This document shows positions 30,263 through 34,026 of a DNA stretch of 49,453 bases, one piece after another. The notes beneath the pieces are model-generated. The model searched no databases and was not told where the DNA came from. It saw only the letters and a program-made list of their open reading frames with translations. The stretch covers positions 1 through 49,453 of the forward strand of contig JBBIJV010000003.1 in assembly GCA_037445815.1 (NCBI GenBank). Direction: 5' to 3'. Every line of letters begins with the position of its first letter. The first letter of the stretch is position 1. The translations under genes were made by a program, and so were the position numbers. Source of the stretch: Rhodospirillaceae bacterium (lineage in GTDB: Bacteria; Pseudomonadota; Gammaproteobacteria; Steroidobacterales; Rariloculaceae).

Positions 30263-30753
30263 CGCTTGGCGCGCCGAAGCTCCATGGCCGTAGGCCGGCC
30301 GTCCGCCGCGGGCTGATACCAGACGGAGAAGTCGGAGAGCGCCGTGCGGTAGTCGCCGAGCGGGTCCTTGCTCTCGATCTCGAACGCATCGAAACCCGTC
30401 CGCAGCATGAAGAAGAGCTGCTCGAGCAGCACCTCGCCGACGGCGCGCACCTCTCCCTTGTAGCCGTAACGCTCGCGCAGCAGCCGCGCATAGGAGTACG
30501 CGCGCCCATCGCGAAACTTCGGGAACTCGAGCGCCACGACGGCGAAATACTCGAGATCCGCGGCGATGAGGTCGGGCGGCTGATCGCTGTGCAAGCGAAT
30601 ACCGAGCGGCGTGCCGCGCGCGAGCAGCTCCTCACGGCGGGCCCTCCATTGATCGACGCTGACGATCACGGGACCCGAGGGCGGAATCGCTTCCGCGCCG
30701 CTAGCATCGACGAACGAGCTCGCGACGAGCTCACCGTTCTTCACGAGCGCCAT
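30259..30753 (-). CDS. DUF934 family protein (sulfite-reductase associated)
   Basis: C-terminal part of track ORF 30259..32139; FPKFRDGRAYSYARLLRER, EVRAVGEVL.EQ, RTGFDAF, YQ. Confidence 0.9.
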   Translation of the reverse strand: MALVKNGELVASSFVDASGAEAIPPSGPVIVSVDQWRARREELLARGTPLGIRLHSDQPPDLIAADLEYFAVVALEFPKFRDGRAYSYARLLRERYGYKGEVRAVGEVLLEQLFFMLRTGFDAFEIESKDPLGDYRTALSDFSVWYQPAADGRPTAMELRRAKR

Positions 30754-32420
30754 CAGGCCGCCTGGCTTTGGTCGCCGTAAACGGCGCTCTTGAACGGCTC
30801 TATGCCGACGCGCCGATACGTATCGAGGAAGCGCTCGTTCTGCTCGCGCATGACGAGATACGTGTCGACGATCTTGCGAATCGCGGCCGGCACCTCGGCT
30901 TGCGGCAGTCCCGGGCCGAGCCGGTCGCCGAGCGAGGCGTGCTGATCCGACGAGCCGCCGAGCGTGAGCTGGAAGAACTCCTGGCCGCGCTTGTCGACGC
31001 CCAGGATGCCGATGTGGCCGACGTGATGATGGCCGCAGGCGTTCATACAGCCCGAGATGTTGATCGTGAATTGGCCGATCTTCTGCAGCTCGTCGAGATC
31101 CGTGAACGCGCGGCCGATGTCCTGCGCTATCGGAATCGAGCGCGCGTTGGCGAGCGCGCAGAAGTCCAAGCCCGGGCAGCAGATGATGTCCGACAGCAAC
31201 CCCAAGTTCGGCGTCGCGAGCTCGAGAGCGGCGAGCTTGTGCCACAGCTCGTAGAGATCGGACTGCTTGACGTCGACGAAAACCAGGTTCTGCCGGTGGC
31301 TCACGCGGATCTCGCCCATGCTGTACCGGTCCGCGAGGTCGGCGACGGCGTCCATCTTGTCGGCCGTGATGTCGCCGGGCGCCTTGCCGGGCGCCTTCAG
31401 CGATAGGTTCACGATGGCGTAGCCCGGCACCTTGTGCTCGACGACGTTGCCGCGCATCCAGCGATCGAACGCGCGGTCGCCGGCGCGCAGCTTCTCGAGC
31501 AGCTCCGTCTCGTCGGCGAGCTTCTCGTACTGCGGCGGCGCGAAGTACGCGTTGATGCGCGCGACCTCTTCGTGGGGAACCTTCAGCGCGCCGTTCTTCG
31601 TGAACTCCCAGTCCTCGTCGACGAGCGCGCGGTACTTGTCGATGCCCATCTGGTTCACGATGATCTTGATGCGCGCCTTGTGGATGTTGTCGCGCCGCCC
31701 GTGCATGTTGTAAACGCGCAGGATCGACTCGACGTACGACAACAAGTCCTCCGGCGCCAGCCACTTCCTGATCGTCTGGCCGATGTACGGCGTGCGGCCG
31801 AGCCCTCCGCCCACGAGCACCTCGAAGCCGATCTCGCCCTGCTCGTTCTTGTGCATCCGCAGCCCGATGTCGTGCACGGCCACGGCCGCACGGTCGTTCG
31901 GCGAGCCCGTCACGGCGATCTTGAACTTGCGCGGTAGGTACGAGAACTCCGGGTGCAGGAACGAGTACTGGCGCAGTAGCTCGCAGTACACGCGCGGATC
32001 GGCAAGCTCGTCCTTCGCGCGCCCCGCGTACTGGTCCGACGTGATGTTGCGGACGCAGTTGCCCGACGACTGTATGCTCGTGACCTCGACCTCGGCGAGG
32101 TGCTCGAGGATGTCCGGCACCTGCTCGAGCTTGATCCAATTGAACTGCAAGTTCTGCCGCGTCGTGAAGTGACCGTAGTTCTTGTCGTACGCGCGCGCGA
32201 GATAGGCGAACTTGCGCATCTGCCGCGAAGACAACGTGCCGTAGGGCACGTTGATGCGCAGCATGTACGCGTGCAGCTGCAGGTACAGCCCGTTCATGAG
32301 CCGCAGCGGGCGGAACTGATCCTCGGTGAGCTCGCCGTTCAAGCGGCGCTTCACCTGGCGGCGAAACTGCGCGACGCGCTCCTTGACGAAGCGGGCGTCG
32401 AATTCATCGTAGCGATACAT
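30753..32420 (-). CDS. cysI: Sulfite reductase hemoprotein (Pseudomonas-type CysI; nitrite/sulfite reductase family)
   Basis: MYRYDEFD, GLYLQLHAYMLR, HFTTRQN, LPRKFKIA; siroheme/4Fe-4S ligand motifs CPGLDFC and SGCMNACG. Confidence 0.92.
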   Translation of the reverse strand: MYRYDEFDARFVKERVAQFRRQVKRRLNGELTEDQFRPLRLMNGLYLQLHAYMLRINVPYGTLSSRQMRKFAYLARAYDKNYGHFTTRQNLQFNWIKLEQVPDILEHLAEVEVTSIQSSGNCVRNITSDQYAGRAKDELADPRVYCELLRQYSFLHPEFSYLPRKFKIAVTGSPNDRAAVAVHDIGLRMHKNEQGEIGFEVLVGGGLGRTPYIGQTIRKWLAPEDLLSYVESILRVYNMHGRRDNIHKARIKIIVNQMGIDKYRALVDEDWEFTKNGALKVPHEEVARINAYFAPPQYEKLADETELLEKLRAGDRAFDRWMRGNVVEHKVPGYAIVNLSLKAPGKAPGDITADKMDAVADLADRYSMGEIRVSHRQNLVFVDVKQSDLYELWHKLAALELATPNLGLLSDIICCPGLDFCALANARSIPIAQDIGRAFTDLDELQKIGQFTINISGCMNACGHHHVGHIGILGVDKRGQEFFQLTLGGSSDQHASLGDRLGPGLPQAEVPAAIRKIVDTYLVMREQNERFLDTYRRVGIEPFKSAVYGDQSQAA

Positions 32421-32456
32421 CGGTGCTCCCCATCCTGTCGGCGTGCCGCGCGGAGC

Positions 32457-32744
32457 TCAAACCTCGGTGAGGTCCGTGCGCACCGTCGGCCCGAAGGCCC
32501 GAATCGCCTCGCGGATCGCCGTCGGGCGCGGCGTGCCGTCCTTGAGCTCGACGTCGATCAGCTGCGGATCGATGACCTGGCACTCGGCCTCGTGCCGCTT
32601 CGCCACAGCCATGAGCCGCGTCGCTTCGCCCTCGTCGTCGATGAGCGCACCGGCCCCGATCGAGGTGTCCCACGCCTCGCCCGGCGCCAAGAAAACGACC
32701 GCGCCGTCGCGCAGCCGGTTCGCAATGATCATCTGCGGCATCAA
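32457..32744 (-). CDS. DUF2849 family protein
   Basis: ANRLRDGAVVFL...REAIRAFGPT; typical position upstream of cysI. Confidence 0.88.
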   Translation of the reverse strand: MMPQMIIANRLRDGAVVFLAPGEAWDTSIGAGALIDDEGEATRLMAVAKRHEAECQVIDPQLIDVELKDGTPRPTAIREAIRAFGPTVRTDLTEV

Positions 32745-32831
32745 CGATTCGTGCGGCCACGGCCGCCAGTCGCCCCTTTTTGGGAGGGCGTATTCTACAC
32801 AGCGTCATGCACACGGCTGCAGCTTCCGAAA

Positions 32832-32866
32832 CTGTGCACAAAATCTGTGGATAACGCTGTGGAGAA
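32832..32866. promoter_or_regulatory. Cluster of three DnaA boxes (DARS-like core)
   Basis: CTGTGCACA (forward, 2 mismatches to TTWTNCACA) -5 bp- TGTGGATAA (perfect, reverse) -3 bp- TGTGGAGAA (reverse, 1 mismatch). Confidence 0.8.
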
Positions 32867-32954
32867 GTATTTGAAAATCGCCGCGCACCGCAGTCTTCAT
32901 TAATCCGAAGTCAATTTGGTCAAAAAACCGTCAAAAAAGAACTCTTCCTTAGAA

Positions 32955-32967
32955 TATCAAAAACTTA
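32955..32967 (+). promoter_or_regulatory. IHF binding site
   Basis: TATCAA-AAAC-TTA matches WATCAA-N4-TTR exactly, with A-tracts upstream. Confidence 0.7.
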
Positions 32968-33144
32968 CGTCACGTTACGACGATGGCGCATAAGGAACGG
33001 ACGACAACCGGTCGGGCCCCGAACGTTAATTCCAATTCTTGGAACGGAGCTGTGTACAGCCGCGCTCGGAAAGCATGGCTTCGGACCCGCTGCGGCTCGT
33101 CGTTCGCATGACGTATAGTTTCGACGGACGACGGGGGGATCGCC

Positions 33145-34026
33145 ATGAATATTCGTTCGAAGCTAATGCCCGTGGCGGTGCTCGCGGCGACGGCAGGCGG
33201 TGTTGCACCGGAAGCGCGGAGCGCGCCGTCGGTCCAATCCGACATCCCCTACGCGACGAGCTCGGGCGGCGAGCTGCTCGAGCTCGACCTCTACTTGCCC
33301 GACTCGGCCGGCGCACCGCTCCTCGTCTGGATTCACGGCGGCGCCTGGGAAAACGGCGATAAATCGGCGATGCCGCTCGAGCCGTTCGTCGAGCGCGGTT
33401 TCGCCGTTGCGAGCCTCGACTTCAGCCCCGCCTCGAAGGCCCGCTTCCCGGGCCAGGTGCACGAGATTAAGGCCGGCATCCGCTTTCTGCGGGCGCAGGC
33501 GAAACGCTACGGCTACGCCGCCGGGCGCATCGCCATCCTCGGCGCCTCGTCGGGCGGTCATCTCGCCGCGGTCGTGGGCACGAGCAACGGCATGGCCGAG
33601 CTCGAAGGCACGCTCGGCGATCACCGCGACGAGTCGTCCGACGTTCACGCGATCGTGTCGTACTTCCCCGCCACGAACCTGACGACGATTTTGCAACAGT
33701 CCACGCCGTTCGGGCTCCGGATCCGCGAGCCGGCGTTGACGCGCCTGCTCGGGGCGGCGCCGACCGATGTAGAGCCGCTCGCACGCCTCGCGAGCCCCGT
33801 GTTCCAGGTCGACCGCACCGATCCGCCGCTCATGCTGCTGCACGGCGATCAGGATCCACAGATGCCGATCAACCAGTCGCACGAGCTCGAGGGCGCGTAC
33901 GCCCGCGCGGGAGCGCAAGCGGAGCTCATCGTCGTGCACGGTGCCGCGCACGGCGGCGATGCGTTCTATTCGCCCGAGAACGTGCAGCGCGTCGAGCGGT
34001 TCCTGCGAGCGCAGCTCGATCGCTGA
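33145..34026 (+). CDS. Secreted alpha/beta hydrolase (HSL-like esterase)
   Basis: Signal peptide; IHGGAW, GASSGG nucleophile, HGDQD, GAAHG. Confidence 0.9.
   Translation: MNIRSKLMPVAVLAATAGGVAPEARSAPSVQSDIPYATSSGGELLELDLYLPDSAGAPLLVWIHGGAWENGDKSAMPLEPFVERGFAVASLDFSPASKARFPGQVHEIKAGIRFLRAQAKRYGYAAGRIAILGASSGGHLAAVVGTSNGMAELEGTLGDHRDESSDVHAIVSYFPATNLTTILQQSTPFGLRIREPALTRLLGAAPTDVEPLARLASPVFQVDRTDPPLMLLHGDQDPQMPINQSHELEGAYARAGAQAELIVVHGAAHGGDAFYSPENVQRVERFLRAQLDR

Follow-up and report, generated by a model that had tools for sequence, protein, structure and literature searches.

The closest described systems are the Escherichia coli elements DARS1 and DARS2, at which DnaA releases its ADP, and datA, which has the opposite biochemical effect. 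In the K-12 sequence, DARS1 lies in the bioD–uvrB spacer and reads TTATCCACT-5-TGTGGATAA-3-TGTGTATTA, and DARS2 lies in the rppH–mutH spacer and reads TTATTCACC-5-TGTGGATAG-3-TGTGAAGAA, the numbers being base pairs between the three DnaA boxes (I to III); an initial annotation of the DNA studied here had given these spacers correctly. The accessible passages of PMC6868365 describe boxes I and II as opposite in orientation with a 5-bp space, describe box II of DARS1 as a full consensus, and state, citing work from 2009, that the spacing of the boxes is conserved across species. DARS1 requires neither IHF nor Fis, and no IHF consensus is found within 200 bp after its box III in E. coli. For DARS2, the accessible passages of PMC4245941 describe FBS1, IBS1-2 (3 bp apart), FBS2-3 and boxes IV-VI, of which IBS1-2 and FBS2-3 are essential while FBS1 and boxes IV-VI are dispensable. 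In the E. coli sequence after box III of DARS2, a Fis-like site is found at +29, IHF sites at +59 and +75 (3 bp apart), an exact Fis consensus at +111 and a DnaA box at +177. The definition of datA includes an IHF site between boxes 2 and 3, box 7 beside box 2, and hydrolysis of ATP-DnaA; read on the opposite strand (L208, 1745-1927), it presents a head-to-head pair of boxes with a 3-bp gap, then 84 bp, the IHF site, 56 bp and another box. In the literature passages available, conservation of the DARS2 core, IBS and FBS is described just for E. coli-related gammaproteobacteria, and in the searchable literature as a whole DARS is described just for E. coli and its close relatives, with no DARS-type element or composite of core and accessory sites reported outside them and the term “DARS-like” absent.

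Here we describe an element in the window, by which we mean the whole stretch of DNA analysed (49,453 nt). That stretch makes up all of contig C3 in a draft genome that totals 3.52 Mb in 313 contigs, with a GC of 67.5% and a completeness of 88%. The genome belongs to a gammaproteobacterial genus, in agreement with the high-GC lineage far from the enterobacteria that the initial annotation had assumed. We read the element as a probable DARS2-type DnaA regulatory element, a non-coding assembly site that would be neither a gene nor an origin, and put the probability of this reading at roughly 55%.

The three-box core

The core occupies positions 32832-32866 and reads CTGTGCACA-AAATC-TGTGGATAA-CGC-TGTGGAGAA (Table 1). 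Its sites and spacing are as initially annotated, with box I opposite to boxes II and III, and alignment with the two E. coli DARS cores, which that annotation had proposed as a check, gives identical orientations and the same 5/3 spacing. The strong-consensus box II of a DARS core, from which assembly starts, is present as a perfect TTATCCACA; in this the core is like that of DARS1, which in E. coli is found in the uvrB promoter region, although DARS1 works without IHF and Fis. Box I holds the palindrome TGTGCACA and in this genome can also be read on the minus strand (TTGTGCACA, 32833-32841). The head-to-head reading is nevertheless settled by relatives, since all 17 loci aligned from the genus keep the T-N-C-A-C-A of box I in the plus orientation. 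Box II is invariant in all 17.

Table 1. Features of the element and its surroundings, in window coordinates; offsets are counted from box III
Feature	Position	Strand	Remarks
cysI-type sulfite/nitrite reductase gene	30753..32420	-	NIR_SIR and NIR_SIR_ferr domains
DUF2849 gene, first of the sulfite reductase operon	32457..32744	-	PF11011, E 3.9e-20; on the box I side
Conserved GTATTCTACAC motif	32790..32800	-	Outside the element; reads TAGAAT on the minus strand
Composite: core, Fis-like site, IHF site and distal box	32832..33059	+
DnaA box I, CTGTGCACA	32832..32840	+	Head-to-head with box II; 2 mismatches to TTATNCACA
DnaA box II	32846..32854	-	Perfect consensus TTATCCACA on the minus strand (TGTGGATAA on plus); 5 bp from box I
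DnaA box III	32858..32866	-	TTCTCCACA on the minus strand (TGTGGAGAA on plus), 1 mismatch; 3 bp from box II
Conserved A-tract block TTTGGTCAAAAAACCGTCAAAA	32915..32936	.	Contains the Fis-like 15-mer (32918-32932), offset +52
IHF consensus site TATCAAAAACTTA	32955..32967	+	Offset +89; separated from box III by 88 bp
Weak fourth DnaA-box-like site TGTGTACAG	33051..33059	-	Oriented as boxes II and III; offset +185
Secreted BD-FAE family esterase gene	33145..34026	+	On the accessory side of the core

Single DnaA boxes are not enriched in the window (3 found, 1.43 expected), and the 3.52-Mb assembly has just three perfect ones, namely box II, one in the dnaA–rpmH spacer and one on contig C33. The genome was scanned for box I with up to three mismatches, a gap a, box II with up to one mismatch, a gap b and box III with up to two, a and b each running from 0 to 10 bp. 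The 5/3 spacing gave two matches, the window core and C33:628-662 upstream of rpmE, and the other 120 of the 121 spacer pairs gave none. Within the window the core pattern matches once, as compared to none in 100 shuffles, even with two mismatches allowed; on these two results, the shuffles and the 120 other spacer pairs, we rejected a chance cluster of box-like words. The AT-rich island of the initial annotation is borne out as well: positions 32791-32990 have the lowest GC of all 200-bp stretches in the window (0.44; next lowest 0.535), and genome-wide only 10 of 69391 stretches of that length have a GC of 0.45 or less. An Rfam scan of 32300-33400 returned a single match, at 19.9 bits against a family threshold of 60.

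Accessory sites on the box III side

Beyond box III, the window element has a Fis-like site, an IHF site and a DnaA box, in the order in which DARS2 has them and on the same side of a 5/3 core. For these searches the DnaA-box and IHF consensus sequences were taken as printed in the literature passages available; the Fis consensus was applied as a 15-mer, the printed form having four central n and the accessible text of PMC4245941 speaking of a 15-mer. The Fis-like 15-mer (GGTCAAAAAACCGTC) has two mismatches to that consensus. The A-tract block that holds it is the most conserved sequence outside the core in the 17-locus alignment, where it reads TTTGGTCAAAAAA-N-CGTCAAAA, and it is also found at the rpmE copy in relatives. 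Weak as the initial annotation had judged it to be, the 15-mer sits at +52, which is the peak position of the Fis consensus across the wide element family described below.

The perfect IHF match 88 bp downstream, also initially annotated, is the only one in the window (0.10 expected; at least one in 10 of 100 shuffles). In 16 of the 17 genus loci the best IHF match lies at +88 or +89, and in the remaining one (L017) at +93. Mismatches number 0 in two loci, 1 in two, 2 in ten and 3 in three, a mean of 1.8 as compared to 4.06 in random windows from these loci. An IHF site on the box III side, as in DARS2, is thus predicted from the consensus. The fourth-box site has the form TGTG-N-A-N-A-G at +185, of which TGTG-N-A is conserved in the genus alignment.

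The likeness to DARS2 has its limits. Offsets here are +52 (Fis-like), +89 (IHF) and +185 (box), as compared to +29, +59/+75 and +177 in E. coli. The distal box is oriented as boxes II and III, whereas that of DARS2 has the opposite orientation, and for the essential FBS2-3, whose exact consensus stands at +111 beyond the IHF sites of DARS2, no counterpart was found here. Both elements lie outside oriC and in a promoter region, that of mutH for DARS2, whereas the neighbours of the window element are DUF2849–cysI and the esterase gene.

Conservation in the genus and a second copy at rpmE

The region was matched in 22/22 genomes of the genus as compared to 0/18 outside it, and the strict core pattern is present in all 22; the conservation in relatives that the initial annotation had called for therefore holds, and it holds regardless of neighbours. 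Sixteen of 19 relatives' loci compared contain the core, the misses (L009, L016 and L019) being loci centred on the DUF2849 start, from which the box segment is ~4.7 kb off. Among relatives the 35-bp core is unchanged while the flanks have diverged.

The proposed tie to the cysI promoter fared less well. Fifteen of the 17 genus loci have the esterase gene on the right of the core, and in three loci (L010, L014 and L015) the element stays with the esterase gene with no cysI nearby. Two others (L018 and L021) show the converse, the element remaining with DUF2849–cysI with no esterase gene, and in at least 7 of the 22 genus genomes the element and the DUF2849–cysI start are ~4.7 kb apart. This association is thus not conserved. 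The ~4.7-kb separation was observed in G002, G003, G012, G016, G017, G019 and G021; elsewhere in the genus the distance is about 90-200 bp.

The 17-locus alignment has the GTATTCTACAC motif conserved wherever DUF2849 is adjacent, with a spacing to the DnaA core that varies. It is more likely a cys promoter than a part of the element, and its TAGAAT may be the -10 of DUF2849–cysI; a sigma-70 promoter scan of 32650-33250 found no consensus promoter. On the other side, ~30 bp upstream of where the esterase gene begins, a small hairpin (CGTCGTTCGCATGACG) precedes a conserved CGTATAGT (33098-33118). Most loci with the esterase gene retain both, and this stretch could serve as a leader element or as a promoter -10.

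The second element of this genome (C33:628-662, L169) lies between a Ham1/rdgB-like gene and rpmE. It is mirrored with respect to the window copy, reading CTCTCCACA-3-TTATTCACA-5-TGTGGATAA, and with a perfect fourth box at C33:450 it spans C33:450-662, although its accessory sites are otherwise degenerate in this genome. In 12 relatives, the rpmE copy follows the plan of the window copy: its A-tract block is accompanied by an IHF site at +86..+88 and, at +170..+172, by a perfect DnaA box. Of 13 loci, including our own, 6 match the IHF consensus perfectly, 4 with one mismatch and 3 with two (three weak rpmE matches that failed the core filter, L038-L040, were excluded), and box II of this copy varies solely at the N position of TTATNCACA. 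In four relatives this copy is 77-105 kb from dnaA. Two copies are present in 15 of 22 genus genomes and a single copy in both genomes available from the same family. From the same order, 12 of 16 genomes match (11 of 15 without the unpublished G039), two of them with two copies. From these copy counts we conclude that the copy upstream of rpmE is the older of the two and that the one in the window was added specifically in this genus. A mobile repeat was considered and set aside, as the copies have motifs at fixed offsets in common, not overall sequence.

A wide family in Beta- and Gammaproteobacteria

A scan of one genome per species with the pattern CACA-N5-TGTGNATAA-N3-TGTGGA retrieved at least 121 stretches. 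By title, nearly all of the matches listed are from Gamma- or Betaproteobacteria; the six outsiders among them are two Clostridia, Catellatospora, Merdiplasma, Bacteriovoracaceae and one labelled Planktophila. The last (L063, titled Candidatus Planktophila lacus) has a GC of 0.63, an rpmE flank 80% identical to that of our genome, and the composite; it is probably a mis-binned contig.

Among the 123 unique elements listed, the four positions of box I that the pattern leaves free match the consensus without mismatch in 55 and with one mismatch in 48. A Fis consensus with at most one mismatch is present in 98 of these 123, with its peak at +52, and exact Fis matches number 47 in the +50..+59 bin as compared to ~1 per bin elsewhere; beyond the IHF site, the elements listed show no enrichment of the Fis consensus. 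In the same set, there are 79 matches to the IHF consensus (at most one mismatch) at +82..+89, and 89 matches to a box oriented as II and III at about +150..+180 (modes +157 and +170), the distance from IHF site to box having modes of 72 and 84 bp. All three accessory sites occur together in 57 of the 123. In its widespread form the composite thus combines a Fis-like site at +52, an IHF site at +85..+88 and a DnaA box at +157 or +170.

The genes beside the family elements differ by lineage (rpmE, priA, xseA, hemN-like, engB, ECF sigma, exbB), and dnaA is not among 78 left-flank reading frames. Genomes often have two copies; in three single-contig genomes these are 0.12-0.25 Mb and 0.5-1.0 Mb from dnaA (sizes rounded).

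An even sample of the class, with a first gap of 1-9 bp allowed, yielded the core in 195 of its 401 genomes (193 of 399 without the unpublished G181 and G335), so that DARS-type elements are not peculiar to this lineage. The first spacer was exactly 5 bp in 144 of 150 among the matches listed, with a further 143 matches beyond these. When instead the second gap was left free within 0-8 bp, 51 matches came from 34 of 81 genomes, every one of them with a gap of 3 bp. A reversed-pattern control gave 0 among the matches listed. These prevalences are lower bounds, because the strict pattern misses E. coli's own DARS1 and DARS2, with CACT or CACC at the end of box I and TGTGTA or TGTGAA at the start of box III. 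Outside the class, a sample of the phylum (L214-L233) includes one coded family, f264, that has the full composite; four others (f267, f271, f275 and f282) have three strong boxes in a DARS1-like form, without the Fis, IHF and fourth-box sites.

DnaA and partner proteins

The genome encodes a DnaA 67% identical to that of E. coli, with the DNA-reading residues unchanged and with L290, F239, K243, V211, R285, R399 and D433-T435 conserved. Accessible literature passages report that Gln208 of E. coli DnaA, at the head-to-head interface, is needed for the DARS-dependent release of ADP. In this genome residue 208 is Ser and not the Gln of E. coli, and five other carriers have Gln, Ala, Ala, Val and Ala at this place; all other interface residues checked are invariant. 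As for the partners, IhfA (165 bits), IhfB (154 bits) and Fis (99.6 bits; cut-off 99) are all encoded, and Hda is encoded as a fragment at a contig end, so that the proteins needed for the IHF and Fis involvement proposed in the initial annotation are at hand.

Relation to the replication origin

With its DnaA boxes, IHF site, Fis-like site and AT-rich DNA, the element has a likeness to oriC, and the initial annotation had named GC skew as the means of telling the two apart. Throughout the 49-kb window the skew stays negative. In the relative G021, its sign switches on contig C2 at ~900-920 kb, and dnaA is found there, at 903.9 kb; the orthologue of the window site is at 226 kb of another contig, C4, in a 331-kb stretch with negative skew throughout, and the rpmE copy is at 981 kb of C2, inside the right replichore. 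There is thus no switch at the window site nor at its orthologue, and the window element does not have the position of an oriC, at a GC-skew minimum with an unwinding element; oriC was rejected on the skew in the window and in G021.

That the element is an origin, or else an AT-rich promoter in which box-like words happen to cluster, we consider very nearly negligible. Three observations can be put in its favor: nowhere else in the assembly are TTATNCACA-like words packed as densely as in the core region (5 in 75 bp), the DNA is AT-rich with an IHF site, and the dnaA–rpmH spacer has but a single perfect box. They are outweighed, for an origin, by a skew minimum that in G021 falls at dnaA and by the presence of two copies per genome, and, for chance, by the shuffles and spacer pairs given above.

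In our genome, the dnaA–rpmH spacer is at C11:29361-29578. In the 400 kb around dnaA of G021, the only cluster of at least three strong boxes is the rpmE copy, and no group of at least three strong boxes within 500 bp was found at the skew minimum and dnaA (C2, ~900 kb). The origin of this genus must use weaker or differently spaced boxes.

Proposed function and alternatives

The sequence comparisons give good support to the reading of the element as a DnaA–Fis–IHF regulatory element of DARS2 architecture. Regeneration of ATP-DnaA appears the most likely of several activities that such an element might have. By analogy with DARS2, the steps of binding, bending and nucleotide release would be as follows. 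DnaA, whose DNA-reading residues are identical to those of the E. coli protein, would bind the perfect box II first, and from there would recruit a second DnaA head-to-head onto box I across the 5-bp gap; a third, on box III beyond the 3-bp gap, would join head-to-tail. The Fis-like site at +52 and the IHF site at +89 would bend the DNA, with the centre of the IHF bend ~112 bp from the centre of the core and ~94 bp from the fourth box at +185, distances at which the occupant of the fourth box would be folded back onto the core. The strained ADP-DnaA oligomer would then release its ADP, as at E. coli DARS2, and the freed DnaA would rebind ATP and be active again for initiation, counteracting the Hda-dependent inactivation.

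We hold ATP-DnaA regeneration less firmly than the architecture, because Gln208 is not conserved, the geometry is datA-like and the rpmE copy is origin-proximal, as datA is. Also counting against the DARS2 reading are the weakness of box I and box IV, the two mismatches of the Fis-like 15-mer, and the lack of a counterpart to FBS2-3. The accessory layout alone does not tell reactivation from inactivation, because datA on its opposite strand has a similar box–IHF–box geometry. An unlikely alternative, then, is a datA-like element, at which a DnaA–IHF assembly would stimulate hydrolysis of DnaA-bound ATP, or would titrate DnaA, and so restrain initiation. In both systems DnaA boxes flank a single IHF site, and the 84 bp, IHF site in the same orientation and 56 bp of datA come close to the gaps of 85-87 and 59 or 71 bp in the composite family; the rpmE sister copy at 77-105 kb from dnaA and a DnaA lacking Gln208 would fit as well. 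Yet datA separates its head-to-head boxes by 3 bp and lacks a third one in tandem, whereas the 5/3 triple is invariant in the element family, and the composite has a Fis-consensus site at a fixed place, whereas datA has none and the literature passages available mention no Fis requirement for it.

The position of the element in a divergent intergenic region raises another question, whether DnaA, IHF and Fis might act here on transcription of DUF2849–cysI or of the esterase gene, with no part in the nucleotide cycle. DnaA is a known transcription factor (accessible passages of PMC11317965), DARS1 and DARS2 themselves overlap the uvrB and mutH promoter regions, and the core would be about 35-75 bp from the conserved -10-like cys motif. 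We nonetheless think such a control region improbable: the element is kept where either cysI or the esterase gene is missing, its distance to the DUF2849-linked motif varies by ~90 bp among relatives, the composite adjoins unrelated genes elsewhere (rpmE, priA, xseA, hemN-like, engB, ECF sigma), and the promoter scan of the intergenic region found no sigma-70 consensus. More improbable again is a DnaA–Fis–IHF complex with some other chromosomal role, whether structural or tethering near the origin macrodomain or as a replication checkpoint. The composite is widely conserved at a fixed helical phasing while DnaA residue 208 varies, and oriC is built from the same parts, DnaA, Fis and IHF sites, all of which would suit such a role; but no positive evidence points to it, and the core matches the sole arrangement with a shown activity, namely ADP release.

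We tentatively consider a broader proposal, which is possible though doubtful: the composite of core, Fis site, IHF site and box IV could be the ancestral switch for the nucleotide state of DnaA, both in the Beta- and Gammaproteobacteria and in one or more other coded families of the phylum, with E. coli DARS2, and perhaps datA, as its rearranged descendants. Since most carriers have Ala, Ser or Val at residue 208, such an ancestral device would use a different DnaA–DnaA contact. If the proposal is true, the DnaA on box IV, delivered by the IHF bend, is possibly the active partner, and the device might even drive the opposite reaction.

With its core spacing, its Fis-like and IHF sites at fixed offsets, its helically phased fourth box and its frequent occurrence in two copies, the composite is a concrete object for asking whether chromosomal regeneration of ATP-DnaA is general in bacteria. 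It also brings out a sharp and testable conflict, in that carriers do not conserve a residue that DARS activity in E. coli is reported to depend on. By record title, the carriers include the cultured genera Acinetobacter, Vogesella, Massilia, Duganella and Noviherbaspirillum, in which experiments are possible.
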